Positions 1,168-62,684 of a stretch of 64,000 bases of DNA are shown here, piece after piece. The DNA is from Schmidtea polychroa (taxonomy: Eukaryota): assembly GCA_044892525.1 (NCBI GenBank), contig CM097885.1, positions 37,448,001 through 37,512,000 of the forward strand. The letters run 5' to 3'. The notes under the pieces are model-generated. The model had not been told where the DNA came from, made no database searches, and saw only the letters and a list, made by a program, of their open reading frames with translations. Every line of letters begins with the position of its first letter. Within the stretch, counting starts at the first letter, position 1. The position numbers and the translations under genes were made by a program.

Positions 1168-1283
1168 GGAAAAGGGATAAAAAAATTTAACTTGACATAA
1201 AATTATTTGGTTACTTCGTCAACACCGTCAACTTGATTTCAAAATAATTTTACGTTAACGTAAAATTTTCTATCCCTTTTTCA
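1168..1283. repeat. Small imperfect inverted repeat (MITE-like)
   Basis: AAAAGGGATAAAAAAATTTAACTTGACATAAAATTATTT pairs imperfectly with AAATAATTTTACGTTAACGTAAAATTTTCTATCCCTTTT; arms about 40 bp. Confidence 0.35.
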
Positions 1284-1496
1284 CTGATATTATTTTAAAT
1301 CTATACATGGAGTGTTATAAAAATTAATAAATAGCTAACCTCTAATAATCAGTAATATTCCATAAATTCTATTTATAAACAGCAATTATTTATAATTCTC
1401 TTCCCACTGCCGTGCTTTAATTGATTTGATTGGTTACTGCATTAAAAAGTTTCAAAATGGTGTTCTTTTAAATGCATTCTTTTCCCATTGCAGTGT

Positions 1497-2569
1497 AAAA
1501 TGCCGTGTAATGCATACTTGTATTATCAAATTGAACTCAAAGACATAAAAGATAATGAAGACATAACTTTGGAAAATAATTTCTTTCCCAACTTGTTTTC
1601 AAGTATGAAATTACAAATTACATCTTATGATATTGAAACAATTAATAATCCTGGAGTATATTCTACAATGTTAAATTTAATATCAACAGGACAAGATTAC
1701 AAAAAACAATATGAACAAATTGTTGGTTGGATTGCTGATACAGAAAATTGTGATAATGATGTAGGGGGTATCGATGAAAATACAGGATATGTAGCAAGAA
1801 AAAAACTCAACAACAAAACAAAGAAATTTGAAGGATTTTTTGAATTAAAATATTTATTTGGATTTTTACAAGATTATAATAGAATCATTGATAATAAAAA
1901 ATTGAATTAATCTGTTGTAGAGATGTAAATGATAAAAAAAATATTTTATGGAGCAGTCAATAAAAATTAAAAACTTTGGAATTTCATATTCCTATATGGA
2001 GTTTGAACCCTAGAGCAGAAATAAAAATAATAGAAAGATTAAACACCAACAATTCTATAAATGTAAATTATTTGAATAGAAATTGTACAGTACTTGATTT
2101 GGGAGTTGAATAGCTTATAGACCTCAATATATTATAATAGGATTTAAAGATCAAGACATATCATTCCAAAAGAATAATAATTTATTCATTTAAAAAGTTG
2201 AGAATGCTTGTTTGAGATCAATTCAAATTCAATTAAATGGTTTTTATTATCCAATTAATGAAAATAAATTTAATGAAAAAATAATGACAATTTGTTTCCA
2301 TACAAAAATTATATTCAAATGTGTAGTACTTTTAAAACACCTTAACAAGTTATAAAGATTTAAAAAATTTATATTCAATATTTTGTATTGATGTTTCAGA
2401 ACAAGATAATGATTTGGCAATTAATAGTTTTAATGTAACTTTACATTTAAGGAAGGATCATGAATACAAAGCAAAATTATATTGTTTAACTTTAGAAGCA
2501 AAGAAAATAGAAATGAGATGAAATAATGGTTATATTTCATTAATTGAACGAGTCCGAGGAAATAATTGA
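1497..2569 (+). pseudogene. Polinton/Maverick (adintovirus-like) major capsid protein, frameshifted
   Basis: ORF 1488-1910 (NNFFPNLFSSMKLQI..IETINNPG..STMLNLIS..GW..NTGY..FELKYLFGFLQDYNRII) continues in shifted frames as IKTLEFHIPIWSLNP..RPQYIIIGF..IFCIDVSEQDNDLAINSFNVTLHL..KLYCLTLE. This motif series is characteristic of Polinton double-jelly-roll capsid proteins. Confidence 0.75.
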
Positions 2570-2599
2570 TTTTTTAAATATTATTTTTCAAAAATAAAA

Positions 2600-2715
2600 A
2601 TGGAACATGTATACAAAAATTATAAAAGGTACTGGCGTTGTAATATTTGTAATGTAATGACATAACAGCACAAGATAAATCAGATCATAAAAAACTGAAA
2701 AACATGTAAATAATA
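2600..2715 (+). pseudogene. Small C2H2 (U1-like) zinc-finger ORF within the Polinton relic, frameshifted
   Basis: MEHVYKNYKRYWRCNICNV then, in a shifted frame, DITAQDKSDHKKTEKH (CxxC...Hx5H). Confidence 0.45.
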
Positions 2716-2769
2716 CAACACATTAATCATGTTAATAATGAAAATTATAATCATGTTAATAAATACAAG

Positions 2770-3105
2770 ATGATAAAACCAAAAACACATCATCCTAGAT
2801 TTACTTTTGAAAAACCCTTTACTGGAGGTGACCTAGTATTTGCAAAAGCAATCCTAAAACCTTTTACAATTGAAAAATATCCAGGAGAAAGACATTTATT
2901 TTTTCACAACTATACTTGACCTAGAACGCACCTAGACATAAGATTAGATGAAAACAATATTCCAAAACCTGGAGAAGAACCTATTAATAGAGTTGAACAA
3001 GCAGCATTAAAACATGTTATAACTTATAGAAATCAAGATATAGGATCGAGACATGTAGCTGATTGTAGTGGATTGTTATATTTTTATTGTTTTTATTATT
3101 TATAA
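2770..3105 (+). pseudogene. Parvovirus-VP1-type phospholipase A2-like (PLA2X-like) gene of the Polinton relic
   Basis: Single frame: MIKPK..YPGERHLFFHNYT*PRTHLDIRLDENNIPKPGEEPINRVEQAALKHVITYRNQDIGSRHVAD. It matches the (Y)NYxGPGT Ca-loop, DxAAxxHDxxY and RxxAD pattern; TGA at 2917-2919 replaces Gly and HD has become HV. Confidence 0.65.
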
Positions 3106-3227
3106 CAAAATCTCAATTGGCGTTTTTTTGTTATGACAGTGTTTGTTTCAGAAATATCGAGGAAACGAAATGTTAAAAAAACTATATAGCGATAATTTAA
3201 TATAGTAAATTATCACTATAAAAACAT

Positions 3228-3695
3228 AAATAATACATTAGATACGAAATTTCAAAGTATGGATAATAAACAATAAAATTCCATCTATTCAACATTTTCC
3301 AAAAATCTTCTATTTAACCAGATTATTGTCACAAATTCTATCCCTATTTTACTGGACAGAAGAAGAAAGAATAATTCCAATTAAAACTATATGAAGTTTT
3401 AAAGTGGTGAATAATAAACAATAAATTTCAACCGACTCAACATTTACTAAAAATCTTCTATATAACGAGATTATTGTCCTGAATTCTATCCCTATTTTAC
3501 TTAACAGAAGACTAAAGGATAATCCCAATTCAAACTAAACGAAGTTTCAAAGTGGTGAATAATAAGCAATAAAATTCTACTTATCCAACATTTTCGAAAA
3601 ATACTCTAATTATAGCGCAATTACAATTTAGAATTCTACCACAATATTATTGAACAGAAGAAGAATAAACAATCTCAATCTAAACTAGACGAAAG
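3228..3695. repeat. 148-bp tandem repeat, about 3 diverged copies
   Basis: Anchor ATAATAA(A/G)CAATAAA starts at 3263, 3411 and 3559 (period exactly 148); shared TTCTATCCCTATTTTACT..ACAGAAGA blocks. Confidence 0.85.
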
Positions 3696-4069
3696 TAATA
3701 ATATTACGTATATTATACGATCCAGCGAATCGCTCCAGTCAAGGTATCACCGAAAATCCGTAAGGCTAATTAAGGTCCTTCAAAGTTGTAAAGTTGAATT
3801 TGTTATTTGTATTTTGTTAATCTGCAAACATCAGAAAACGCATTACCTCTAACAACACACTTTCACCCCAGCTGACCCGAGACCGTTTTTACAGGAGACT
3901 CAGCTGGGCTCTACAAATAGTCTAATCACAAATCAATAACAAAAAAATAATAATCAACATAATATAGTACACAAACAATAACACTGATGTTAATTTAATT
4001 CATGATTTGAACAAAATTTAAAATCCAACATCCAAAGAAAAATTTCAAAGATCTCTAGTTAAATTAGCA

Positions 4070-4680
4070 ATGAAAAGAAAGATCTTCGCAGGTTCAGGGC
4101 AACGCACAAGAAATACACCTGAAAGAAAAGAAGAAGAATTAGTTATTCCAAATGAATCTGAAATAAAATATGCTAATGAGCATCATGAATTTAGAAAAAA
4201 TATAAAGATTTTGCAAGTTAAAGTTTTTAATAAAGATGATATTTGGTTTGCTGATTTAGTTTTTAAGCCAACCAAGTCATCAGATCCTGAAAAATTCAAA
4301 ATAATTTTAACGGTTATAAATTTATATACAAGATTTGCTTTTGCAACATTTCTAGAAAACAAAACAGGATATTCTATTAGTAAAGTATTTGAAAATATAT
4401 TTGAACAATTTCAAAGAAGTCCAAAATATTTATGGACTGATAAAGGAACAGAATTTTACAACAAGATATTTGCAAGTTTTTTAAATGAAAATGATATAAA
4501 ATTATATTCAACAGAAAACGAAGGAAAAGCAGTAGAAGTTGAAAGATTAAATAGAACATTAAAAAATAAAATGTGGAAATATTTTACTGCTATTGGAAAA
4601 CAAAAATGGAATAATGAATTGCTACAAAAGTGGTTAACGAATATAATAATAGTGTATATGGTTCTATACAATCTACCTAT
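4070..4680 (+). pseudogene. Polinton/Maverick retroviral-type integrase, C-terminally truncated
   Basis: DDIWFADLV, LWTDKGTEFYN, YSTENEGKAVEVERLNRTLKNKMWKYFT: DDE triad present. Homology is lost after KWNNEL, and the rest of ORF 4070-5053 is read-through into unrelated DNA. Confidence 0.85.
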
Positions 4681-6149
4681 TCAACTATTAATATTGTTGG
4701 ATGATGAGGGAAGACGCATGACTACATTCAACCTCAATAAATATTATAGAACGGGGCCCAACAAGTACAGGGTTAATATTTACGCGGAGAACCCTGATAT
4801 TCCAAGGCGATCGCTCCATCAACAATCTATCAACATCAGTCAATCATGCAAACCATTAATCCAAAATAACAACCAAAAATACCCTTCAAATACCAAAGAC
4901 CAACTTCAATATGAACTAATCCTTAAACAATTTATTATATTGAAAATTGACAATTTATTGAACAATTCGATTGAACAATCTATTATCGTGCGATTATTTT
5001 ATTTTTATTTTAACGTATTATTTAATTTAACAATCATTCGACCTTTGAAATAATTATCATTGATGTGTGATTATTTAATTTTTATTGAATGGGATTTTAT
5101 TATAATTTTATTTTTACATGTAATAATATGTTATCATCATGACGAACGTCGGAAAAGACGAATTAAAATCGTTGGATTCCGGATATGAGTATCAGCAGAA
5201 GCTGGCTCGACAATTAGAGAAAATGGCAAAAACAGAAATTAAAAATAGTGAGATTAACACAGTAGTAAAACTGATATCACAAGTTGAAGATGATACAAAA
5301 TATCACAAAGACACACAGAAAATCCGAAAGAAACTAGGAGAGATTTTGTAAAGTTCGTGCAATATTGAGTGATTCATTCGAATTTTTAGGCTTTCGGTCA
5401 AATTTTGAGGTTTTAGTCATTTGAGCGATATGGCCAAAGTTTTTTTATTGGTGGTTTTAAGATATCTAAAATGGATGTAAGTGGTTGAAGTAGGAAGACT
5501 CCATTTGTGAAGTTTATAACGATGATACATATGTATTATATTAGGTTTTAGAAAGTTTAGGTTAGGTGGAGAAATCATAATATACATAAAATTTTAATTA
5601 ATTATAACAAACAAATAAAAAGATTATCGAATAGGCGGAATCCCTGCAAGGATTCCTACAATCACCCATTTGATAATTAAATATATCATTTGATTTGAGT
5701 ATTATTAAAATTTTATTATTATTATATTAAATTATTATTTTTAGTTTATAAATTATTAATTATTTAATTTTATTTTCGCTAAGGTAGTATTATTTTAGGA
5801 AACGTATTAAATTTAAAGGTTTAATATTTTGTTATTAGTAGATTTTAGAATAGAAAATACGTAGATAAATAAGCATAAAATAGTTTATTAATTATTTTTT
5901 TTTATTTTAATCAATCCAAAGGAGGCAATTTCAAAGATCGTTGTTTATTTAATATTGTTATTTTATTATTTAAGTATTTTGAGTATTGGTAAGATCAATT
6001 AGTTAGTTAATTTGGGATAAGTGAAATAGATGGAATAACATAGTATAACCATACTGTACAAGTAAATAGGATAAGATGCTTTGAAATACGTATATAAATA
6101 TATAATATGGGGTGATATTAATCTTTATAAGTGTGTTCACGATAGATGT

Positions 6150-9850: not shown

Positions 9851-9974
9851 GTAGTTACGGTAAATTACATGTTAAATTATTACTGCAATTATGGTTTTCG
9901 GCGAATGTAGAGTTTGAGGGGGGTTATTTATAAATTAATACAAATCATACTTTTAAAAACTTAGTACGCACACA

Positions 9975-10079
9975 AGTTAGTAGTGACAAGTGAGGAATAT
10001 AAACCAAGCCAAATATCACGGGATATATAGTATTATGTAATATTTGTATGGGTACCCTATGGGGTGATACGATGTTACA
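9975..10079 (-). mobile_element. 5' fragment of an LTR family (TGTAAC..ACCCCATAGGGT) abutting the gag-pro relic
   Basis: Reverse complement aligns with 14938-15040 and 13768-13860 (CCCCATAGGGT..GGGATATTTGGCTTGGTTTATACTCCTCAC). Confidence 0.6.
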
Positions 10080-10994
10080 TTTTGCTGCGCACAAATTCGC
10101 GGTTTCAGTTTTTGTGTTTTTATATAGGTAATTCGGTAACAATGAAATTATTGAACCTGAATCAACAAGAAAATTAAGGTCATTGCTATGCACCGTGAAA
10201 CAATTGTCGGTGCTATCATTGGTGACTTTATATGTTTCCCGACTCTTCTTTGTCGAAGGTGCAGGGTTTGTTGCATTTGTATGCTTTATTCCCAAATTTA
10301 TTGTGGTAGTATCAATAGTTTTGGTTTTAGCATTTATTAGGGTTGTTCCAAGTTTTGTTTCTGTCGAAGCTGCTGCGGCTGCCAGATCTTGTATTTTGTC
10401 TGGGATAATTTTGTCTGTTTTCATAATATTGCGTTCTCCTGGATTCTCTTCTTTGTAATTCGGTTATCTCTTTTCTTAGATTTTTGTTTTCAATAATTAT
10501 TTCGTCGAATTTTGTTACCAGAGTTGAGAGAAGTTTGTTCGTTTCTGTAGTTTTTGAGCTATTGTGTACAGGTATGTTTTCGTTGTTTTTAAAAAATTTT
10601 TGTTTTGGCAAGTTCTATATATTGTCGGGTATATTTCGTCGTTGATTTTGTCTGCTATGTTTGCCAGAGTATCGAGGTCTGTACAGTTGCTGACAGCTAG
10701 AATCCGGCGTATTTCAGGTGGCATTGCGCGCATGAAAAGGTCTTTGATGAACTCTTTTGAACCGGTGCTTGTTATTTTTGGTTGCAAGTATTCGAGTTTT
10801 GCCTTTAAATGTAGCAGAAATTCAGACGGTTTGTCATTAACCAATTGGATATCTTTCAAACAAGATTCAAGTAGCTCACGTCTGTTTACTTTGTTCCGAT
10901 TTATTAAAGTATTGTATAAGTTTTCGAAAGGGTTCGCTATATAGTTTTTTAATTTTTTTAAAAAAATTTTTAAAATACAATCCTTATTAGACAA
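10080..10994 (-). pseudogene. Degenerate Ty3/Gypsy gag and protease
   Basis: DKPSEFLLHL..FIKDLFMRAMPPEIRRILAVSNCTDLDTLANIADKI (gag); YYHNKFGNKAYKCNKPC (C-terminal Cys/His motif); FLVDSGSIISLLP (aspartic protease). Several frameshifts. Confidence 0.8.
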
Positions 10995-11460
10995 TAAAAA
11001 AATATAGTATAACAGTTTATTACAAACAACAACAAAAATTACAACAACTTTAATAACATGAACAATGTCAATAGCAAGAATTACAACAAAAACTTAAACA
11101 GAAACAATGATAAAATGGTTCGAAATAATTCCAAGAAAATTAATGCAAACACGATAAAATGTAAGTATTTATATATATTTTTCAGTATTTAAAGGTCTTT
11201 TTACTGTAATATTTTCATTATAATTAAATTAATATTAATTTAAATATTATATTTAATTTTCATTTATTTTAGAAATTTGAATTTAATTTAATTTACTCAA
11301 AGTAAAAATTAAAACAATTTTTAATTTATGAAAATAATTTATTAGATAATAATAATTTATGATTTTATTTAAATTTAATTATTTCATTTAATCAATTTAA
11401 ATTTATCAATAAAAATATTTAAATGCAATATTTTTAATTAAATTATAATGTAAACCATAA

Positions 11461-18440: not shown

Positions 18441-20905
18441 ATGTCAAAGAAGTTAAGTGGTGCTGAATTTAGAAAAAGAAGAATGGAAAAACAAAAACAG
18501 AAAATGACGTTTTAAGAAAAGTCCCTAAAATAACAAGCTTTTCAAGGCCAAAAGATTCAAATACTGCATCCGATTCAAATATTGCATCAAATTCAAATAC
18601 TATATCTGATTCAAATAACATATCCTCTAAAAATCAACTTCAAGTTGACGACTGTTACGAGTCCCATAATAGAAATAGAAACAGATAATCCTCATATTTC
18701 AACGCCTGATGCAACTCAAAATACGGAAATTCATGTTACATCTGACATGGGAAATTTTTCAGATTTAATAACCACCGAAGAAAAACATTTTATTATAAAA
18801 CGAATGGGCCCGTTCCCTAAAGATCTATGTGGTCGTAATTAAAACAGGGGATCCAATGAAAAATATTATTACTCGTATATAGGAAACATAAAAATAAAAA
18901 TACAATGGTTGTGTTATTCAACAAAGAAAAATGTGTGTTACTGTCAACCGTGCTGGCTTTTTGATACTTCAAATTGTGATTTTTGTTTTGTAAGAGGAAC
19001 ATCTGATTGGGTACATTTAACCAGAAATATTGAAACACATGAGGAATCACACCAACACGCAATTTCTTGTGAGATATACTATCAGTGGAAAAGTGGTTCA
19101 ATTATAGATATTGTCAATCAGAACGAAATGAAAAATGCAACCAATTATTGGCGTAAATTATTACGACTTATAGTAGATGTGACTTTAACGCTTGCAACAA
19201 ATAACTGATCTTTGGGGTCATAGAATTACCGAATCAGAAACATCCCAAGGAAACCTTTTAGAGTTAATAAAATTGCTTTCACGTTACGATAGTGTATTGG
19301 TAGAATTATTAAAAAACTGAAAGGCCATATCAATTATTTTAGTCATGATATTCAAAATGAATTAATAAATTTGATTTCTCAAGAAATTAATTAACAAATT
19401 AAAAACGAATTTAAAGAAGCAGCATTTGTGACTATTATAAGTGATACAACACAAGATTTAATCAAAATTGACAATTAAGCACTGTATTTCGCTACGTTTT
19501 AATAATTAAAGATGAAAATGAAAAACTAACTGATATTCAAATAAAGGAAGTGTTTTGTGGATTTTCCCAGATTACCGATCCAACGGCAAGTGAATTGGAA
19601 ACAGGAGTTTTAAAAATTATTGAAAAATTTTTAACTACTGACTTCTCAAAATTACATGGCCAAAGGTACGATGGAGCTGCGAATATGAGCGGTATTTATT
19701 CAGGTTTACAAACGAGAATCAGACAACGAAACCCTGCTGCTAAATTTGTTCACTGTGTTGCCAATGTACAAGAAGTCCGCAGATTTTACGAAGAACTGGA
19801 AAAAATGTACGTATTTTTTAGTTCCGTTGACGTTGGGCGATGTTACTGGAAACAACGCAAAATAACATGGCAAAAATTTTAAAAAGAATTTGCCCAACAC
19901 GATGGTCTTCTCGAGTTCAAGCTCTTGACGCACTGCGTTCACGCTATTTTGATGTTATCAAAATTCTGACTTACTTATGGAAAATCCCTTTTCCATACAT
20001 TAAATGGGAAAAAATGATGAGCAACGTGAAGCTAAAAATTTAAGAAATTATTTTGAACAATTTTCGACAGTCATATAGTAGAAAGTAAAATATTAGAACC
20101 TATTAATTATCTGTCGAAAATATTACAAGGCACCCAGGAAGATATTGAAAAATCTGTAGATATGATATCGTCTCTCCTAACCAAATTCCAAAAGTTGAGG
20201 AATAATTGGGAACTTGTTAAAAACGAAGCTTTGGAATTATCACTTAAATGGAAAATTGAGCCGATTTTTCCCAATAAACTATTGCGTCGCGTGAAAAAAT
20301 TCTATGATGAGTTACAAAAGTAAATGAACGGATTACAAAGGCCGAAGAGTGTTTTAAAATTGAAGTTTTTATACAGTTATGGATATTATTATTAATCAAT
20401 CAACTATTAGGTTTGCGTCCGTTCGACAATTCTATTCAGTATTTAAATGTTTATCACCAAAACATCTCATCACGTCATGTGAAGAAAATATTCTCAACGA
20501 GTCGGAAATCTTGCTTTCAACTTATCCTAATGACATTTCTCTGAGCATTGGGCCCCAATTACTTCGTTTTAAAATTTGCTTTTTTAACCAGTTAGAAAAA
20601 GTTTCATTTATAAGGGAAGTTGCTGAATTACTTTTAATTCACACACCAGCTTCAAGTAGTTTCTCGGAAATAATTACAGCTTGCCTACTTTTTTAACACT
20701 ACCTGTAACTACTGCGGCAGCAGAGAGAAGTTTCTCTAAATTAAAATTAATAAAAACATACATAAGAAGCAGTATGTCCCAACATCGCCTTAGCTCACTA
20801 GCAACTTTATCAATTGAGAGGACAGCCGCTTCCCAACTAGATTTGGATAAAATAATAGATAATTTCGCACGCGAGAAAGTGAGAAAATATTATATATTAC
20901 ACTAA
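18441..20905 (+). pseudogene. hAT transposase pseudogene
   Basis: MSKKLSGAEFRK; WLCYS..CYCQPCWLF (TTF Zn finger); GQRYDGAANMSG..FVHC; PTRWSSR; LPVTTAAAERSFSKLKLIKTY..SIE (dimerization domain). Many stops and frameshifts. Confidence 0.9.
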
Positions 20906-26989: not shown

Positions 26990-29900
26990 GGTGGGTCGAA
27001 TGTTAATAAATTTTGAGTTCAAGAAAGGAAACATGGTTAAAAAGTTGTATTTTGGTATAGAAAAATCGAATCAAACCATTTTACTTAGATTTATGGACAT
27101 TTACTGCTCCCAACTTTTCTCCGAAAATGCAGTTCAACATAAGTGTGAAAACAATGTAATTTGGCTAGTGTCGGAATGTGTTTTGCGCCTTTGTCCATAT
27201 TTAGATGTAGCTTTCTTAATAGCTTATAAGTATATTATTTACTCTCTTGGGCTGAGATAGTATATTCTGTGTCCTCATCCCGCATTGAAATATATCCTGA
27301 CAACGTCAGTGATTAGGAAGGGCCAAATTTGAATTATCCTTTTCAAAGACAAAAATCAACTTTCGAAATTATTTTTTATTAAAAACATCCAGCCAAAAGT
27401 TTAGAAATGTATTAGCGAGGGCATAAAAAGAAGTCACATGAAATCAGCTTTGCTTTGCACCTTGGGCAATTCCTTCCTTGATTTTTTACACAGTAGTACC
27501 ATACCATGTCTGGACTTGTGACCAAACACTTTGCAACTGGCAGAAGAAACATCTTTGATGTCTCTTTCAACGGCTTGAGAATGACAGGGAAATTGTTCTA
27601 ATGTAATTTTCTTATTCATCTTCAATTCATGATCCAATATATGAGATAAAAGAGGGGGAGGCGTCAAATTACATTTTGTCCAGTCAATCATGTCAACATA
27701 TGATGTAGCAGACGACTGAAGAAAGACAGTATTCTTGTCCATAGTGCGAATCACTTCGGAAGGGAGAAAATTTTGTCTTGCAGTTATGATTTTTTCTGTT
27801 GCAAACTTTCTGATTTCTTCATCATCATCACCAACAGCAGCTAGGAGTATATTTTCTGGATGTGAGAAGTAATTGTTGTTCTGAATGACAGGAAAGATGA
27901 TTTCTTGGTCTGATGGATCCAAATCCTGCAGAAGTTGGAGCATATAAAAAATATTTCTTGCACCATCTTGGCATGACGAGTGAGTCTTTATATAAAACCA
28001 TGACGGTCCATAGAAATTGACAATAAATTTCACTATTCGCATGAGAGGTTCAGATGGAGCAGTTTCGGACATATATAGTCGCAGAATTCTATTAGCTTTC
28101 GTTAGCCAGCGACTGTGATTCAAATTTCCTGGTTGTGTCATTTGTAGAAAAGGGACATCCTTGTTGTTGTGGTACCCTTTCTGGACTGCCAAGCATACTC
28201 TGAGGAAATACAATTGATCAGTGTTCAATTCTTTCTTGACATTTTCACTAATATCTACGACCTTTCCAGGAAGGGACATAAAGGCTACTACAGGCTTGTC
28301 TTTTGGATCAAAATCAAGAACGCTTCCTATATGACGTTTTTGGACCTTTTGTTTCTCCACCATCGACGACTGAAAAATACTTCCTGAATGGCAATTCATT
28401 TGCATGCAACAAGCATATCAGCCATTGTAGAGGTCGCCCTAGGCTTTTTCGAGTCTTCTGATTATTCCATTATTTTTTCCGGTGTTTGTATTGGTTCCAT
28501 CGCACACAATTGCTTGAAGGGTCAGTGAGGACTGCGTGCTAACGATGATTGACATGATTTCTTTGCCAATATCCACAGCTTTACTACTTTGAGGTACAAC
28601 ATGATCGATATATGTATCCCCTGGAAAGGCGACAATCACATAATGCTCCTCTTTTAGGATCCTTCTATGAAGTAAGGTGGAATCTTGTTTCCCGTCGAAA
28701 CCGAGGCAAATCAAGTTTTTCGCTTCTGCTGAATGCTGTTCAATTTCTCTCTCCCTCCAGTACTTTTTCTGACGCCGTAATTTTGCGGGATTGATGATTG
28801 TTTGAGAGGATAACAGTTCCATATCTTTCAGAAAAGCGTTTACTAGCAAACACGTGTCTCTGTTGCTCACACCACATCTGTCAACAGCTTTACTTAATTC
28901 AGGATAATGTCTTCTATTTTGAAATTCATCACATTCTTCTACGCTTGACTCTGAGCTTTCTGTTGAATTGTCTAACTTATCTTTACTTTCATCACTAGCG
29001 GCTTCACTCTCCGTGTCACTTCTTGAGGTCGGATGTAGATCGTTAACTTCAGTGTCCATTATTTCATTTTTCATTTGTTTTCCTTTTCCTGTAGGGCTGC
29101 TTTTCGTTTGTTTTCTCTTCAATTTTGAGGTTTCCTGTCTGTCCGTATTTCCGATTTTCATGTTTCTGGTAGTTTGTTGGTCAATCCAGAACTCCCACTC
29201 TAAGGTAGGAATTTTCAAGGCCAATCGGCATGTACACTGACTTCTTCCACGAGCACCATCATTAAAACATTTGCAGCAACATATGTCAAACAATTTGGAA
29301 AACGAGCTTAACTTATCTTGAAATTTGGCAGATGACCTCTTGCATTCTGGATACTTCTCTAATTCACGCACTTTTGATATTAGTCGCTTGACACGAACCA
29401 CAATACTACTGAACTCAACAGTTGGGATACTTGCCTTCATATAAATTTCCTTCACCTTATTTGCGAGAAGAGTTGCTTGTTCGTTAAAGCCAGTATGAAA
29501 TTGCGTACATTTCTCATTGTAACAGTAATCACGAAACACATCTTCACAAGTAGGTAATTGGTTTCTGGGTAGTTCACAAGTTTGACCAAACAGACAGTGA
29601 CGTGATTTACTTCTTGTTTTGCGAAATTGCTTATTTCTCTGTCCCTTCATAACTGCTCTTCTGTACTCAGCTCTGGCAAAATAAAAGTGAATCATCAAGT
29701 TAACTTTTTTAATTAGGTCCAGCAAACACTTGACATCCAATCGAAACAAATTAAATTATCTGAGTTTAGACTGACTAGTAGTATCCATGTGGATTATGTG
29801 TTGACTGTAGTGTGTGTGTTAGTATTGTTCAGAAGAAATTGTCTTTGTGAGTGCTTGTGTGAAGGTGCTTCCGTGAATTAACCTCTCTATACATGCACGC

Positions 29901-33989: not shown

Positions 33990-34803
33990 TCAGCTATTCT
34001 CCGCAAGTTTTGTACAACACTGTAACGAATGCTTACGTAACAAGGATTGTCGACTAAATGATCGGGGACATTTATCACACTGGTAACGTTTACGAGTCGT
34101 ATGCGTTTGCATATGAGCTCGTAAATTCGATCGGTCTGCAAACGCTCTTTGACATCTATTGCATACGTACGGCCGTTCACCAGTATGAATTCGTAGATGA
34201 CCTGAAAGTAGCCACATTCGAGAGAACGCTTTGCCACACTGAGGGCAAATACAAGGCGGGTTATGGGTCCGCTGATGCATTTTCAAAGCACTTGAACTGT
34301 TGTGTTTCTTGCCACACAGAGGACATTCGTGAGATATTGAATTCACAATGAATATTGATTTCCCTGAACTGTCGGAACTTGGAAGACCGCTATCTGTATC
34401 AGTAATCGATTCCGTTGGTAGAAAGTTTTGATTTTCAGAATTTAACAACGAGTGAAATGTGCTAGGAGACGGGTAGTTGATTAATTTTGAATCCCAGACA
34501 GTCATCGACGGATACAGTGGCTGGCAAAACGGTAAGCGTTCTTGCTGTGATACTAAATAATGATAAAGATATGTTGCCCTGCGAATGATTTCGAATTTTT
34601 GATTATTATTCATGATATCTATTGGTTTACATGTTGAATTTGTCATTTGATTTCTAATCGAGCTGACAATCATTTGAATAACATTGAACTTGGTTACATA
34701 TGGAACCATTTGATGCGCCAACTCATAATTTTCGAGAATAGATCCTAAAAACAATTTCCACGTCAAAATATTTTTGAAAAATTTATATTTGTAACCTACC
34801 CAT
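33990..34803 (-). CDS. snail: Snail-family C2H2 zinc-finger transcription factor; predicted join(34803-34800, 34744-33990), 252 aa
   Basis: Four fingers: [38 protein letters not shown] linker, [21 protein letters not shown], and terminal C2[14 protein letters not shown]. The FSRxWLLxGH and [10 protein letters not shown] helices are diagnostic of Snail/Scratch. The track start is TTG; a 55-nt GT..AG intron (34799-34745) joins ATG-G in frame to GA-TCT. Confidence 0.9.
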
Positions 34804-34909
34804 AATTTTGAAAATCTATTCGATTAATAGATTGATAGGTAAATTTCCACTCATCTCATTGAAATAACGCAAAATCTACTTAAATATCGCAAACAATCAA
34901 TTTCGCTGT

Positions 34910-53756: not shown

Positions 53757-53991
53757 TATTAGGAGGTTCATCCTGTAAAACATTAAAATCAGTTTTTGTT
53801 TCCATAAATTTTATTTCAATAAATATCAAAATCAAATTATATCTTCTTTAATCTTTCTTATTTAAACAAATTTTCTACGAAGATATTTTTAATTAAAATA
53901 TCTTCTTATTTTGTTTTTTTAAAAATTAATCTAAACTTTAATTTTTAAAATTTTCAATTAAAAAATTTCTTCGTCATAAAACTTCCTCGTA
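53757..53991 (-). repeat. 3' LTR
   Basis: TACGAGG...CCTAATA on the minus strand, directly after the PPT. Confidence 0.95.
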
Positions 53992-54002
53992 TCCCCCTTC
54001 TT
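53992..54002 (-). other. Polypurine tract
   Basis: AAGAAGGGGGA abutting the 3' LTR. Confidence 0.9.
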
Positions 54003-54235
54003 AAGAAATTTTTAAGTTTTTCCACATTTCTTTCGATCCTTTTTCCATCTTCATTTCTTAAGATGTATCGTCTGTCATGCACTTTCTCTATCACTTTGTA
54101 CGGACCTTCATACCTGTCCTGGCCTTTGTGGCGTGTTTCTACTTTTACTAATACTTCTTCTCCTACATTGAATTTTCTCCTTGTTTGTTCTTCTAGTTCT
54201 TCCTTTATCGGTATTTCTTTGGACCCGTACCATTT

Positions 54236-57046
54236 TTACCTGCTAATCTTTTTTCCAAAAACTATCTCTGCCGGGCTTTTCCCTGTCGTTTTTTGTTTGG
54301 TTGCATTTAAAGTGAATTCGACTTCTGGTAATATCTCTGCCCAATCCGTTTTCTTTCTATCCTGTAAAGTAGCATTTATCAAATCCCGTATTGTCCTGAA
54401 TTGTCTTTCTATCTGACCGTTTGTTTGGTGATGGTATGGACTCGAAAAACATAATTTAATATCTAGCATCTTTGTGAATTCTCTCATCATTCCTGATTCA
54501 AACGCCTTTCCGCAATCAACTCTTATCTCCTTTGGGCATCCAAATCTTAAAATCCACTTTTCTAAAATCGTTTTCTTTATTGTTTCTTCGTCTTGTTTTG
54601 TTATCGCTGTCAAGACTTGATACTTACTATACTGATCTATTATGCCCAATATATACTTCTTACGTCCTTTTGTTTCTGCCAACGGTTCACATATATCCAC
54701 GAATATAATTTCGAACATTTCCTTCGAATCTTGTCTTTTTACTGGTTCTTTCGTTGTTATTGTTAAAGCCTTGGTTTTTTGACAAATCTCACAACTTCGA
54801 ACAATCTCCTGAATCTGACTCCACAGGTGTTTTCCAACATATCTATCTTTCATATAATCGGCTATCTTCTTGACTCCAGCATGACACAATAGTCTATGTA
54901 TTTCCTTTATTGTTTCTTGTAACTCATTTTCAGGTATCATCGTTTTCTTTCGTACTTCTTCTACAATTCCATGTTGGATGTTGCTTCTTCCCTCTTCTCT
55001 GATCGAGTCTAATAATCTTGTTTTTATCTTTCCTTTCTTAGCTTCTTCGTGGGCCATTTGACATTGAACACACGTGTCACATTTAGTTCTCGACACCATG
55101 TCTGCATTTTGGTGATTAATACCCTTTCTGTATTCTACTCTTATATCTAAACTGCTCAAATAATTGATCCATGTTTGGAATTGTGAAGTAATCGGCTTCT
55201 TGGTTGTCATCATAAACGTGATTGCCTTGTGGTCTGTCCTGAGCGTGAATCTTCTTCCGTAGAGATAGTGCTTAAAATGAATGCAAAAATAATATACCGC
55301 CAATAGTTCCTTTCTTGTAATACAATATCCTTTCTCGTGGCTCGTCATCGAGTGTGATCCATACGCAATTACTCTTTCCTTTCCATCTTTATCTCTTTGT
55401 GAAAGTACTGCTCCAATGGTATCGAAACTAGCGTCGGTATCTAAAATGAACTTCTTTTTCAGATCCGGAAAACATAAGATTGGCGCCGTCGTGAGTGCTA
55501 ATTTCAATCCCTCAAACACGCTATTCGTTCCTTCACTCCATTCTAATTTTTTGTTACTTGGTACGCTACATAATTGTTCTAACATCCTTGCCTTCTTTGC
55601 ATAATCACTGATGAATCTTCTATAATAATTGCAAATACCTAAAAAGCTTCGGAGTTTCTTTACGCAATTAGGCTTCCCAAAGTTCTGTATGGCCTGAATT
55701 TTAGCTGGATCTGTCTGTACTCCTTCCTTGCTGATTATGTGTCCTAAGAATCTGATTTCTTCCTTTATTATTTGGCATTTTTCTGGATTAATCCTTAGGC
55801 CTGCTTCCTCAATCGCCTTTAACACTTCTCCGAGTATTGTATAGTGTTTCTCTTTACTGCTTGAATAAATCAAGATGTCGTCCAAATACACCATTGCTCC
55901 CTTTATTTTGCCTAATACTTTTGTCATCATTTCTTGGAACGTACCTGGTGCTGCTGCAATTCCAAACGGCATTCTGTTGAAACAATATTGTCCGTTCTTT
56001 GTTGAGAAAGCTGTTTTCTCCTGTGATTCTTCTTCTAGTTCCACTTGGTAATATGCATTACCTAAATCGATTGAGCTGAAATAGACGGATCCTCCTAACA
56101 AATCCAACATCTCGTCTATGTTTGGCATTGGAAATGCCTGCCTCTCTGTTACCGCGTTCAGCTGTCTAAAGTCCAAGCATAGTCTAATATCCTTTTTCTC
56201 TTTTTTCCATACACATATTAGCGGTGTATTCCATGGAGAGTTACATTTCCGTATAATTCCATTTTCGTACAAATTTTGTATTGCTTCTTCAATATTTGAT
56301 TCCAAATTTAGTGGTTGGCGATATGGTTTTATGTTTATCGGCTCACCTCTTGTAACTATCTTGTGTTTTACCAAATGTGTGCGACCCACATCCCATTTAT
56401 CTGCCATAAACACGTTTCCACTGTTTGTTATAATTTCCTTTAATTTGCTATCTTCATTGATCTTTAACTGCTCCAACGCTCGTATCAATCGTTCTTCATC
56501 CTTTATTTTTCTGCCAAATTTTGCTTCAATGTTACAAATATAGTTCTTGTCTTTTTCACTAGCCTCGATATCTTTAATTTTTAACAGTCTAAATCCAAAT
56601 GTTTCTTGTAATTCGATTCCTCCAATCACGTCTGGTGTCACTTTCTCCGCCACAATGAATATAACTTCCTTCGAAACATTTCCAATGGTTACTTGCACCT
56701 TCGTTTTTCCTATTGTCTCGATCGTACTCTCGTTTGCGCATCGTAACTTATCGTCACTTTTCGTCAATTGTTGTCCTCGTAGCTTGTTGAAACAGTTCAC
56801 ACTCATTACATTGATTCTTGCCCCAGTGTCTAATAAACAGTCGAAATTTTCCCCATTCATCCTTACTGTTATGCTAGGCCTTCCTTGCATTCTGTTATAC
56901 AAAATTTCAACAACCTGCTCCGTTTCAATGGTTCCAATTCTTTCTACTTCCTCTTCAAACATTTCTCTCTTTAGGAACCTGTATACTTTCTCGCTTACCC
57001 TTCCAACATTCTCCCACTTTTCTGCCCCTTGAGGATATCCCATCAA
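54236..57046 (-). CDS. pol: Pol (PR-RT-RNaseH-IN); one premature stop before the integrase GPY/F region
   Basis: LLDTGA protease; YFSSIDLGNAYYQV and YLDDILIYS RT; DTDASF RNase H; H..H/CEIC and D-D-E integrase. After TAA (54238-54236) the same frame continues with DRYEGPYKV..KNFLRRG into the LTR. Confidence 0.95.
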   Translation of the reverse strand: MMGYPQGAEKWENVGRVSEKVYRFLKREMFEEEVERIGTIETEQVVEILYNRMQGRPSITVRMNGENFDCLLDTGARINVMSVNCFNKLRGQQLTKSDDKLRCANESTIETIGKTKVQVTIGNVSKEVIFIVAEKVTPDVIGGIELQETFGFRLLKIKDIEASEKDKNYICNIEAKFGRKIKDEERLIRALEQLKINEDSKLKEIITNSGNVFMADKWDVGRTHLVKHKIVTRGEPINIKPYRQPLNLESNIEEAIQNLYENGIIRKCNSPWNTPLICVWKKEKKDIRLCLDFRQLNAVTERQAFPMPNIDEMLDLLGGSVYFSSIDLGNAYYQVELEEESQEKTAFSTKNGQYCFNRMPFGIAAAPGTFQEMMTKVLGKIKGAMVYLDDILIYSSSKEKHYTILGEVLKAIEEAGLRINPEKCQIIKEEIRFLGHIISKEGVQTDPAKIQAIQNFGKPNCVKKLRSFLGICNYYRRFISDYAKKARMLEQLCSVPSNKKLEWSEGTNSVFEGLKLALTTAPILCFPDLKKKFILDTDASFDTIGAVLSQRDKDGKERVIAYGSHSMTSHEKGYCITRKELLAVYYFCIHFKHYLYGRRFTLRTDHKAITFMMTTKKPITSQFQTWINYLSSLDIRVEYRKGINHQNADMVSRTKCDTCVQCQMAHEEAKKGKIKTRLLDSIREEGRSNIQHGIVEEVRKKTMIPENELQETIKEIHRLLCHAGVKKIADYMKDRYVGKHLWSQIQEIVRSCEICQKTKALTITTKEPVKRQDSKEMFEIIFVDICEPLAETKGRKKYILGIIDQYSKYQVLTAITKQDEETIKKTILEKWILRFGCPKEIRVDCGKAFESGMMREFTKMLDIKLCFSSPYHHQTNGQIERQFRTIRDLINATLQDRKKTDWAEILPEVEFTLNATKQKTTGKSPAEIVFGKKISR

Positions 57047-57054
57047 ATTTTCTG

Positions 57055-58149
57055 TTAGAATATGGCTCCAACCAACTCCTCTACTGGTGGAGCCCTGTTG
57101 TTTGGGTACGTCTTCCTAAAATTATCTTCATTTGTCTCTACACACGATTCCCTTTCTTCTTCTTCCTCGATACCATTTATCCGACTGTATCTGTTTCTCG
57201 TGAATCTTTGTCTCTCCGTCGCTCTCCCGTACCTCATCTTTGTATAACACTCCTCGGATCTATGACCATTTCTGCTACATCTTTCACAACGTATTTCCTG
57301 ACACAATCTTCTTATATGACCTTCTTTCCCACACCCAAAACATCTTGGAGCTTTTTTATCTGGACAGTTTCTACTTATATGTCCGCTTCTATGACATGTC
57401 CAGCATTCTATTTTACCTTTTATTGGACAATCAATTTTCGTGTGTCCTATTTTGTGGCATAACCAGCATTCTGGCATTTCTCTTCGGATACTTTCTTCTC
57501 TCTGTTCTTTCTTCTTGTATTGTACTCTTCCCTGTGGTTCCTGATAGACCACTCTGGCGTAACTTTTTATACTGTTTATCTGCTCTCTTTGCTTGTCTAC
57601 TTTGTCCATCAGAGTTAGTGTTTCCTTTATTTCTTCTGTGCTTTTTATCTTCAGTAGTATCACTTCTTTCTCAACTTCTTTATTCTCCGCACATACTATT
57701 AACATCCTTGCTGTTAATTTCTCTTTGGTAAAGTCTTTATTTTCGAACAACCTATCAACAAGGTCCTCCACCTTTTTAAAATACGTTTCTATTTCTTCAC
57801 CCTTCCGCCTGTAATTCAACAAGTTTTGTAGATCCTTTAAAACATCTCTTTCACGATCGAATGCCAATCGCAACCTAGCCTGGAATCCTTCGGCTTTTTT
57901 CAGTGTTTTGGCGTACACTTCCAGGAGATCCTCATCAATCATGCAAGACGTTATTCTTTCCTGGTCTTTCTTCTGCGTGATTCCCTTGGCGTCGAAATAA
58001 ATTTCGCATCTTTTAATGAACTTTTCCAAATCGTCCCCTTGGCAGAATAGCTTTGGTAGCAATCTTTCGGTGATTGCGTCCGTGTTTACCGCTGCCACCA
58101 TATTAGGAGGTTCATCCTGTAAAACATTAAAATCAGTTTTTGTTTCCAT
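57055..58149 (-). CDS. gag: Gag with four CCHC zinc knuckles
   Basis: CWLCHKIGHTKIDC, CWTCHRSGHISRNC, CFGCGKEGHIRRLC, CERCSRNGHRSEEC. ATG is either at 58149 (inside the LTR) or at 58101-58099 (LTR/PBS junction). Confidence 0.92.
   Translation of the reverse strand: METKTDFNVLQDEPPNMVAAVNTDAITERLLPKLFCQGDDLEKFIKRCEIYFDAKGITQKKDQERITSCMIDEDLLEVYAKTLKKAEGFQARLRLAFDRERDVLKDLQNLLNYRRKGEEIETYFKKVEDLVDRLFENKDFTKEKLTARMLIVCAENKEVEKEVILLKIKSTEEIKETLTLMDKVDKQREQINSIKSYARVVYQEPQGRVQYKKKEQREESIRREMPECWLCHKIGHTKIDCPIKGKIECWTCHRSGHISRNCPDKKAPRCFGCGKEGHIRRLCQEIRCERCSRNGHRSEECYTKMRYGRATERQRFTRNRYSRINGIEEEEERESCVETNEDNFRKTYPNNRAPPVEELVGAIF
57064..57106 (-). promoter_or_regulatory. -1 programmed ribosomal frameshift signal
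   Basis: C CCA AAC heptamer in gag frame (57106-57100), 5-nt spacer, stem GGCTCCA..TGGAGCC; pol frame is -1 and opens just upstream of the heptamer. Confidence 0.75.
58088..58100 (-). other. Primer binding site, tRNA-Leu
   Basis: TGGTGGCAGCGGT, complementary to the ..ACCGCTGCCA-CCA 3' end of metazoan tRNA-Leu(AAG/TAG); no spacer after the LTR. Confidence 0.8.
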
Positions 58150-58335
58150 AAATTTTATTTCAATAAATATCAAAATCAAATTATATCTTCTTTAATCTTT
58201 CTTATTTAAACAAATTTTCTACGAAGATATTTTTAATTAAAATATCTTCTTATTTTGTTTTTTTAAAAATTAATCTAAACTTTAATTTTTAAAATTTTCA
58301 ATTTAAAAATTTCTTCATCATAAAACTTCCTCATA
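58101..58335 (-). repeat. 5' LTR
   Basis: TATGAGG...CCTAATA on the minus strand. Confidence 0.95.
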
Positions 58336-60844: not shown

Positions 60845-62684
60845 CGGTCCGTGACTATTCAGTCCCGACTGTTTCAGTACTGACCTTTTTAGTCCTAAGG
60901 CCTAATTTTGGATGAAACATTGTGACGAAAATAAAACGAAAACACGCTTAGACAAATGTAAACAAAAACATTAGTATTAGTAAATATTAGGAATTATTAA
61001 TATTTTTATTAATTTATTAATTCGCAAAACGTTAAATTTTAACTAAACTAACCGTCATGACTGATGATTTGAAGTCTCAACGAGGACGTAAGAAGTTGGC
61101 AGATGAAGGGCATCTTTTCAGCTTCCACAAAATGAGCGCAAACGGAGAAAAGAAGTTCTGGAGATGCGATAATCAGGGACAATGCAAAGCCCGGATTCAC
61201 ACTGATCTTAACGATGCCATAGTCAATAGAAGTGGGAGTCCCAGTCACGGAAGCAATGCTGCTCGAGTTGAAGTGGTTAAAGTTAAAACATCGATAAAGA
61301 GGCGAGCCGAGGAAACAATGGAACAACCTGCACAAATCATAAACCATGTCATCCAGGGCATCGATGAGTCAGATGCCAAATAAAGATGCAAACAGGAAGG
61401 TTATTCAAAGGATCAGAAATTGATTGGCCATGGCTCCAGCAAATCCAACCAACTTAACCGAACTAATAATTCCCGAGGAATATCAAATGTACGAGTCAGT
61501 TCCAGGAGAGCAGAAACTCTTTGTACTGGGTGACACAGGACAGGATGATGTTAACCGAATAATTCTATTTGGACGTGAAAGCCATATACGCTGGAGTCAG
61601 CCGATGGATGAAGTGTTCATGGAAGTGTTCAGTTTAGCTCCACCACTCTTTGAACAAGTCTTTGTGGTGTTGGCTAAATGTGGTAGATATTTCTTCCCTG
61701 TGCTGTATGCCCTCCTTGGGAACAAGCAGCAAGTTACACGCGATAGGTTGTTCAGAATCAATAAAGAACTCTGGCCTCAATTCAATCCATCGTTCATCTC
61801 ACTTGACTTCGAAATGGCTGTTATAAACGCAGTCCGTGCTAATTTCCCTTCAGCTGTTCTCCGAGGATGCCTGTTCCACTTAATGAAGAACTTTAGAGTA
61901 CATTTACGCACTGAAGGTTTGCTTAATCATTACGATAATGATGTGATGTTTTCACTGCAGGCCAGGATGATCATTGCTATTGCATTCGTCCCCATCGTCA
62001 ACCTAGATGTCGCTTCCGATACACTCACATAAAAACTTCCTGATGAACTACAGCCCATCCTCAATTGGCTCGAAGATAGTTACCTTGGTAGACGCTTTGG
62101 AGGCAATCGCATACGACGTGCTCCTTGCTTTCCGCCCCCATTGTGGAATGTCTATAATCGCGTTCTAAATAACCAGGACCGCACAAACAATCACGCGGAG
62201 GCTGCACATCGAAGACTTTAGACGGAGCTCGACGTTTCTCATCCTTCAATTTGGCGCTTTATTGACGGGCTGCGACGTGTCCAGAAGGGCGCGATGTCGT
62301 CTACGAGGCGTATGTGGCAGGCACTTCAGCACCGGCAAAGAGACGCAAGTACATACAAGCTGATGATAGAATTTAGACATCGTAGAGTATCTTCGGGGAT
62401 TGGTGCACAATTTCATAATGCAATAACTTTGAAAGTTTTCATCTAGATGTATTTTATTACGTTATTATGTAATTAAATGTTATTAAAAGTTTCATTTACC
62501 TATTTTATTGATATTTTTTATTGATATTTTTTATGCTAATACTTTGAGAGTTTTTATGTAGATTTTGTTTATCAACATATATAAAATTTATTTGAATTTG
62601 TTTGGGACTTAAGCAGACGGGACTGACTCGGATGGGACTGATTTGAACAGGACTGAATCGGTGGGACTGAAATGTCCCGCTCCG
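60845..62684 (+). mobile_element. MULE (FLYWCH-type) DNA transposon, 1840 bp
   Basis: Perfect 9-bp TSD TAATAAACA (60836-60844, 62685-62693); imperfect TIRs CGGTCCGTGAC/CGGAGCGGGAC with TTCAGTCC subterminal repeats. Confidence 0.92.
61057..62420 (+). pseudogene. MULE transposase pseudogene
   Basis: FLYWCH-like GHLFSF..FWRC..CKARIH; APPLFEQ; SLDFEMA; GCLFH; PPPLWNVY..RTNNHAEAAHR; HPSIWRFI. Interrupted by stops (61381, 62030) and frameshifts. Confidence 0.9.

Follow-up and report, generated by a model that had tools for sequence, protein, structure and literature searches.

Among Polintons (Mavericks, Polintoviricetes), phospholipases are common in group 2, and no animal Polinton particles have been observed so far (10.64898/2026.06.19.733378); Polinton lipases were proposed to be carried in virions and to serve in entry (Yutin et al. 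2015, PMC4642659). The virion modules of alpha adintoviruses include PLA2X, a phospholipase A2 (PLA2) gene with a pX-like C terminus (Starrett et al. 2021, PMC8502044), and one supplementary map row of that paper gives Integrase and PLA2X apart. Adintoviruses are defined by an integrase with a chromodomain, a hexon that is reciprocally recognizable by BLASTP with reference hexons, and a PolB with an N-terminal OTU domain (Buck et al. 2024, PMC11071296); the same paper mentions possible Hexon-Adenain fusions, and no mention of integrase fusions was found in its available text. Here we describe positions 1488 to 4677 of a 64-kb window (the whole stretch of DNA that was analysed: 64,000 nucleotides of Schmidtea polychroa, contig CM097885.1, positions 37,448,001 to 37,512,000), which are almost certainly a decayed Polinton fragment containing a fused zinc finger-PLA2-integrase gene that is split by an insertion. 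A preliminary description had read this segment as a capsid gene, a C2H2 finger gene, a PLA2-like gene, a tandem repeat and an integrase gene; the gene count is two rather than four, namely, the capsid gene and the fusion.

Alignment to intact relatives shows that the "Zn finger," the "PLA2 gene" and the "integrase" each form a domain of a single forward-strand gene at 2600-4677, which breaks off at the 3' end near 4680. They are assigned to a single gene because an intact protein, P0136, aligns to the finger region and to both sides of the insertion. This best intact relative (463 aa, 70% identical) begins with a CxxC...H...H finger and carries the domains PF08398 (parvovirus-type PLA2) at residues 61-141 and rve at residues 217-310. 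Window positions 2818-3069 correspond to its residues 33-119 (69% identity), 3986-4630 to residues 117-351 (71%) and 4618-4677 to residues 348-367. The N-terminal C2H2-type finger at 2600-2710 is broken by frame changes and stops; its match to P0136 (residues 3-28) is weak, with residues 3-17 at 2627-2671 and residues 24-28 at 2691-2705 in another frame, and a Pfam scan of the region gave no match. What stands of the finger as first claimed is this CxxC...H match, and it is not a separate gene. The finger-PLA2 linker at 2703-2817 contains a 24-bp repeat (2703-2768), is longer than that of P0136, and is also present in sister copies, being covered by contigs from public sequencing runs that span 2414-2824 and 2723-3027 with 10% differences.

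The first part of the PLA2 lies at 2818-3063, with a GG motif at 2824-2829. A stop at 2917 falls in the calcium-loop region, and the catalytic dyad motif is not intact in this copy. The domain does not end at about 3063 but resumes at 3986, where its second part (3986-4099) contains a stop at 4019, ends in a GxG junction motif (4091-4099) and is in frame with the integrase. A linker and the rve integrase core follow at 4100-4677, with a frame change near 4625 and 3' truncation at about residue 367 of 463. The integrase matched rve (PF00665) above cut-off with an E value of 1e-10 and has motifs around the D, D and E residues at 4244, 4433 and 4538. Both the PLA2 and the integrase claims of the preliminary description were therefore borne out, the former as a parvovirus-type domain.

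The PLA2-integrase fusion is already common in databases. Both sides of the insertion were matched by 26 of the 51 longer homologs (E<0.01), and the PF08398-PF00665 pair was present in 37 of the 51 according to precomputed domains and in 38 with profiles made in this analysis. The order was PLA2 followed by integrase in all 70 of 70 fusions from all sets, and PF08398 was above cut-off in each of the five intact relatives scanned. Finger, PLA2 and integrase share one open reading frame (ORF) in P0136, P0137 and P0151 and in two metagenome loci, L001 and L015. PLA2-like proteins at E<=0.001 numbered 234. In P0190 and P0196, a PLA2 of the same type is joined to unrelated C-terminal domains, not integrase, and P0196 retains the initial residues of the linker that faces the integrase. 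The predicted model of P0136 (predicted local distance difference test [pLDDT], 74; predicted template modelling score [pTM], 0.48; low-confidence stretches at both linkers) matched foamy-virus and other retroviral integrases; when compared with viral models, it matched the MELD-virus integrase first (E value of 3e-17), the mavirus rve fourth and densovirus VP1 weakly (E value of 5.5e-4). ESM Atlas clusters of 184, 111 and 72 members list both families and two were automatically named for them, at scores below 0.9 that make them a lead only. We found no publication on the fusion, although it may be recorded in subscription papers, in Repbase entries or in bioRxiv supplements; it is unmentioned in the available parts of PMC3671162, PMC11161782, PMC11131425, PMC4028283, 10.64898/2026.06.19.733378 and 10.64898/2026.10.13.758929.

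The junction between the PLA2 and the integrase was compared in 33 non-redundant complete fusions (of 60), using an 11-residue span at the PLA2 end. GG/GxG was found in this span in 30 of the 33, versus 1.1% of spans in the integrase part, and on the N-terminal side of the PLA2 in 21 of 25; the window copy has both motifs, before the PLA2 and at the junction. GG↓X and GX↓G are cleavage sites of the mavirus protease, native mavirus virions contain the rve integrase, and the mavirus hydrolase MV13, apparently cut, occurs as two fragments on either side of a GK↓G site (Born et al. 2018, PMC6048507). We propose, at a probability of roughly 0.55 to 0.6, that the fused protein may be a virion precursor that is packaged and then cut at GG/GxG by an adenain-type protease. 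The PLA2 part would bring the precursor into the capsid, and the finger would help, probably by DNA binding. Maturation cleavage by the element's own adenain-type protease would free both enzymes, whereupon the PLA2, like its parvovirus counterpart, would break through the endosomal membrane, and the integrase would accompany the incoming genome, inserting it before any viral gene expression. The fusion would also fix a 1:1 supply of PLA2 and integrase, as in retroviral Gag-Pol, a precursor in which virion proteins come first and integrase forms the C-terminal part, and which the viral protease cleaves. A packaged precursor predicts integrase peptides with the junction N terminus in particles.

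A protease-like domain occupies the same N-terminal position on the integrase as the PLA2 in eight other proteins (P0150, P0159, P0167, P0178, P0179, P0183, P0184 and P0186), which have an N-terminal adenain/Ulp1-like domain, a glycine linker and mostly a chromodomain; the sequences of four were inspected. The glycine junction motif was present in all six non-redundant fusions of this kind (of 12 hand-picked). They stand at two places in the integrase tree, requiring two changes. A protease-like ORF of metagenome locus L003 matched the N-terminal domain of P0183 (E value of 1e-15), and a search of the PDB with the protease-like domain gave no sequence match. In L003, the protease-like domain and a pX-like segment lie in one 444-aa ORF (2182-3513, reverse strand), and L001 has a stand-alone pX-like ORF at 2410-2919. 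More tentatively, and at somewhat under even odds, a broad animal Polinton branch may deliver its integrase in the retroviral way, as the tail of a virion protein (in most the PLA2, in others the maturation protease, with more than one gain) that would be packaged and released by adenain-type cleavage. An integrase joined to an entry enzyme or a maturation protease via protease-type glycine motifs would make sense chiefly for an element that spreads in particle form.

Several observations weigh against the packaged precursor. The strict adenovirus cleavage motif, (M/I/L)xGxG or (M/I/L)xGG (10.1101/341131), fits only 3 of the 33 junctions. The same GG/GxG ends 37 of 67 PLA2 proteins not fused to integrase, so that the junction motif may be mere inheritance from a stand-alone PLA2. 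Integrase was found on only 16 of 150 PLA2 relatives among the matches listed, many of which are fragments, and the finger in only 5 of the 33 fusions; in the window the finger frame is broken, and the finger fusion there rests on relatives. The junction span was picked after the motif had been seen and the fusions are related, so the 30 of 33 are not 33 independent events. The protease-like domains reach no Pfam cut-off, with weak Peptidase_C5 matches in five of the eight (P0183, E value of 0.0014). Packaging and cleavage in this lineage we infer from sequence and analogy.

Some of these points would be equally expected if the fusion were incidental, adjacent PLA2 and integrase genes having merged by stop loss, with the GxG an old processing site at the C terminus of a stand-alone PLA2 and the integrase made anew after entry. 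The motif at the end of unfused PLA2 proteins fits this account, as do the 134 of 150 listed relatives that are unfused, the interleaving of fused and apparently unfused integrases in the tree, and the separate PLA2 and integrase genes of published Polintons (PMC8502044, PMC5803895). We nevertheless consider it rather unlikely, since the fusion has been kept across sequences only 45-55% identical with the His-Asp motif (HDxxY) intact in 63 of the 70 fusions, a different virion protein is fused at the same position through a similar glycine linker, and mavirus packages its integrase (PMC6048507). Alternatively, the fusion may work uncut, the attached PLA2 dragging the integrase-genome complex through the endosomal or nuclear membrane. 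The rarity of the strict adenovirus motif and the parvovirus PLA2, which remains tethered to its capsid protein (PMC4642659), speak for this, but glycine motifs of the mavirus-protease type lie on both sides of the PLA2 in most fusions and the element class encodes such a protease (the ORF in L003), making an uncut protein improbable.

The repeat-family evidence came from six public sequencing runs of one organism in two studies, which contain 40-72% of sampled words from 1200-5200. Contigs from the runs were placed on the window at 80% likeness (5887, 2127 and 2277 from the three larger runs, most of them 90-95% alike) and cluster on the capsid, the PLA2, the integrase and the start of the insertion. 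Judged by these contigs, the element is a multi-copy family in the organism, contig depth being no copy number. The sister-copy contig spanning 2414-2824 carries 41 differences (10%), and the order capsid, finger, PLA2 thus holds in a sister copy too.

The insertion that splits the PLA2 domain is a later one of 920 bp at 3064-3983, with TG...CA ends. Sequence comparison identified a 5-bp target-site duplication, with copies at 3059-3063 and 3984-3988 (forward strand); the chance of such a 5-mer duplication by composition is 0.0007, and the junction was set independently by protein alignment, P0136 residue 117 being matched on both sides. Sister-copy contigs join 3063 to 3992 (run X1) and 2898 to 3986 (X1, X2 and X5; intervening letters not known), indicating related copies in the organism without the insertion. 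About three tandem units of 148-150 bp at 3242-3693 lie wholly inside it (148 bp at 3242-3602, 2.4 copies, 82%, and a third diverged unit to about 3693), and a contig joint from 3203 to 3738 that crosses them indicates relatives of the insertion without tandem units. The repeat of the preliminary description therefore exists but, since it sits inside a later insertion, is not viral. By its ends and short duplication, which we take to be features of a solo long terminal repeat (LTR), the insertion is likely a solo LTR; no parent was found, and it did not match the LTRs of a Gypsy element elsewhere in the window. An anatomy of four distinct viral genes, in which the tandem repeat is viral too and lies between the PLA2 and the integrase, would accommodate window pieces in different frames 920 bp apart. 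This very improbable anatomy is refuted by the P0136 alignment, in which one intact protein spans both sides with adjoining residues, by the sister-copy joints across the insertion, and by the 5-bp duplication exactly at that junction.

The other gene of the segment, at 1488-2569 on the forward strand, is a 5'-truncated major capsid protein gene (double jelly roll). Its first open piece matched PF21738 (double jelly roll-like) with an E value of 1e-4, below cut-off, and a search for longer proteins yielded 15 intact among 303 candidates, all of them PF21738 proteins of 415-448 aa, the best 62% identical. Residues 55-432 of an intact relative, P0001, align over 1488-2566 in five frame segments (four frame changes), and in-frame stops occur at 1961, 2191 and 2519. 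The first 54 residues of P0001 were unmatched, and the gene lacks the first ~54 codons of its relatives. The predicted model of P0001 (pLDDT, 76; pTM, 0.80) matched the major capsid proteins of Singapore grouper iridovirus, PBCV-1, mavirus and Sputnik (E values of 4e-14 to 3e-12; template modelling scores of 0.53-0.61). On its PF21738 relatives and this predicted fold, the capsid assignment is secure, and the claim of a capsid gene stands.

Related loci were sought in a metagenome scan with alignment A3, which gave 32 loci from 584 pattern hits. PLA2 sequence was present in 15 of the 32 and lay in one ORF with the integrase in 13, in some only partly (the query selects for fusion). Among 16 neighbouring ORFs scanned, a protein-primed family B polymerase (pPolB; PF03175, E value of 4e-22) directly follows the integrase in L007, a member of the window integrase's clade, the Pox_A32 ATPase is above cut-off in L001 and L003 and below it in L030, weak pX-like matches (Adeno_PX-like) lie in separate ORFs of L001 and L003, and a neighbour in L002 is a capsid protein (hhalign 99.9% to alignment A1). 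Because the fused-gene relatives adjoin pPolB, A32 ATPase, capsid and pX-like genes, the segment is taken as a Polinton/Maverick fragment. ORFs in L022 and L024 are presumably penton-like by resemblance, with no Pfam or PHROG support. Viral contig scans found no relative. Within the window, whose fragment ends inside genes, comparison with the ORFs of the 32 loci found no pPolB; an A32/FtsK packaging ATPase, an adenain/Ulp1-type cysteine protease and a single-jelly-roll penton were likewise not found there.

A set of 173 integrase cores was reduced at 80% identity to 84, and in the tree of these the window integrase was sister to P0136 (84% identical over 152 columns) within a 29-row clade that included L001, L002, L003 and L007, with a Shimodaira-Hasegawa-like approximate likelihood ratio test (SH-aLRT) value of 99; the split recurred, with support of 100/99, in a careful tree of 43 rows. 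Its core is 52-57% identical to those of L002 and L007. The chromodomain PF00385 was found in none of the nearest intact relatives (P0136-P0140), and the window gene is cut before that point; more distant PLA2-integrase fusions do have one. That a Gypsy or Ginger integrase landed beside a capsid fragment by chance is hardly credible: an approximately unbiased (AU) test did not reject grouping with the Gypsy clade (p-AU 0.125, not significant because the Gypsy branch is very long, 4.4 changes per column) and the tree held no Ginger sequences, but against this stand the identities to P0136 and to L002 and L007, the lack of a BLAST match to the window's Gypsy integrase core at an E value of 1e-3, a context free of HHCC and reverse transcriptase, the MELD-virus integrase as best viral fold match, and sister contigs that link the end of the capsid gene to the finger and the beginning of the PLA2. 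The AU result is not decisive, and the integrase is placed with relatives of Polinton context, not Gypsy.

The capsid fold and the integrase clade together support the core of the preliminary description, a decayed, capsid-encoding Polinton/adintovirus-like fragment with a parvovirus-type PLA2. Neither of the two outcomes named beforehand as refuting it, a repaired capsid protein with no double-jelly-roll or Polinton match and an integrase grouping with Gypsy or Ginger, was observed, in trees that held no Ginger sequences and with the AU test against Gypsy not decisive. Its co-oriented forward-strand run (with the finger weak) was confirmed, as was its decay, with five in-frame stops and several frame changes within matched segments. 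This copy is dead, about 3.2 kb long, truncated at both ends and without termini; no terminal inverted repeats or target-site duplication were found flanking it, both ends being breaks inside genes. We infer that virions of this lineage were once made in this host. No ATAAAC box was found ahead of the fused gene. An imperfect hairpin (42-nt arms, 83% complementary, 33-nt spacer) occupies 1167-1283, some 200 bp upstream of where the capsid fragment lies, and a contig joint in this region skips 1119-1246. Downstream, a small open frame at 5127-5351 (forward strand; 74 aa stop to stop), on a repeated stretch, has weak Pfam matches only.

The 64-kb window is AT-rich (GC about 0.2-0.4), with assembly gaps, one C2H2 finger gene and several transposons, composition and content consistent with an animal genome. 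The finger gene at 33990-34823 (reverse strand) belongs to the host and encodes four to five C2H2 fingers; we take it to be Snail/Scratch-like by resemblance. A Gypsy-type LTR retrotransposon at 53757-58335 (reverse strand) has 235-bp LTRs that are 98.7% identical, a recent insertion, and open gag (zf-CCHC) and pol (protease, reverse transcriptase, RNase H, integrase). FLYWCH and MULE transposase fragments lie at 61036-62032 (forward strand), a transposase-like ORF with a weak DUF4371 match (hAT-like) at 18843-20696 (forward strand), and two long transposase-like ORFs (438 and 327 aa) with no Pfam match at 27434-29755 (reverse strand). Fragments at 9945-11093 (reverse strand), presumably gag/protease-like retroelement remains by resemblance, gave no significant Pfam match.

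The copy at 1488-4677 is itself an ordinary fossil; the gene preserved in it bears on how the integrase of an animal Polinton reaches a new nucleus. If integrase delivery is indeed of the retroviral style, these elements would be integration-competent on entry, and the fusion would be indirect evidence of their spread as particles. The zinc finger-PLA2-integrase family will be mis-split wherever annotation takes PLA2 and integrase to be two Polinton genes. The likeness to retroviral Gag-Pol is an analogy only, as that precursor belongs to an RNA virus with an aspartic protease and a reverse transcriptase. The virophage mavirus shares the rve integrase, and there both the integrase and a lipolytic-type hydrolase are virion proteins, but in mavirus the two are encoded apart (integrase, MV02; hydrolase, MV13), its host is a protist, and it needs a giant virus (PMC6048507). 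The Spodoptera frugiperda Mavericks share a PLA2 with conserved catalytic residues, the rve integrase, a protease, an ATPase and pPolB, whereas their PLA2 ("CAP") and chromodomain integrase are separate ORFs (PMC5803895). With alpha adintoviruses the lineage shares an animal host, a parvovirus-VP1-like PLA2, pX-like proteins, a hexon-like capsid and the rve integrase (PMC8502044, PMC11071296). There, however, PLA2X is its own gene ending in a pX-like part and the integrase bears a chromodomain at its C terminus; in the present lineage the PLA2 is continuous with the integrase, the pX-like ORFs of relatives are separate (L001 and L003), and a chromodomain is absent from the nearest relatives. 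Because those relatives have neither the chromodomain nor the PLA2X layout, the segment is not filed as an adintovirus in the strict sense. With Polintons/Mavericks it shares the double-jelly-roll capsid protein, the rve integrase and the parvovirus-type PLA2 and, in its relatives, pPolB, the A32 ATPase and a protease-like gene; it differs in that PLA2 and integrase form one ORF, often with an N-terminal finger. We therefore class it as a Polinton/Maverick-derived fragment that would have worked like an alpha adintovirus.

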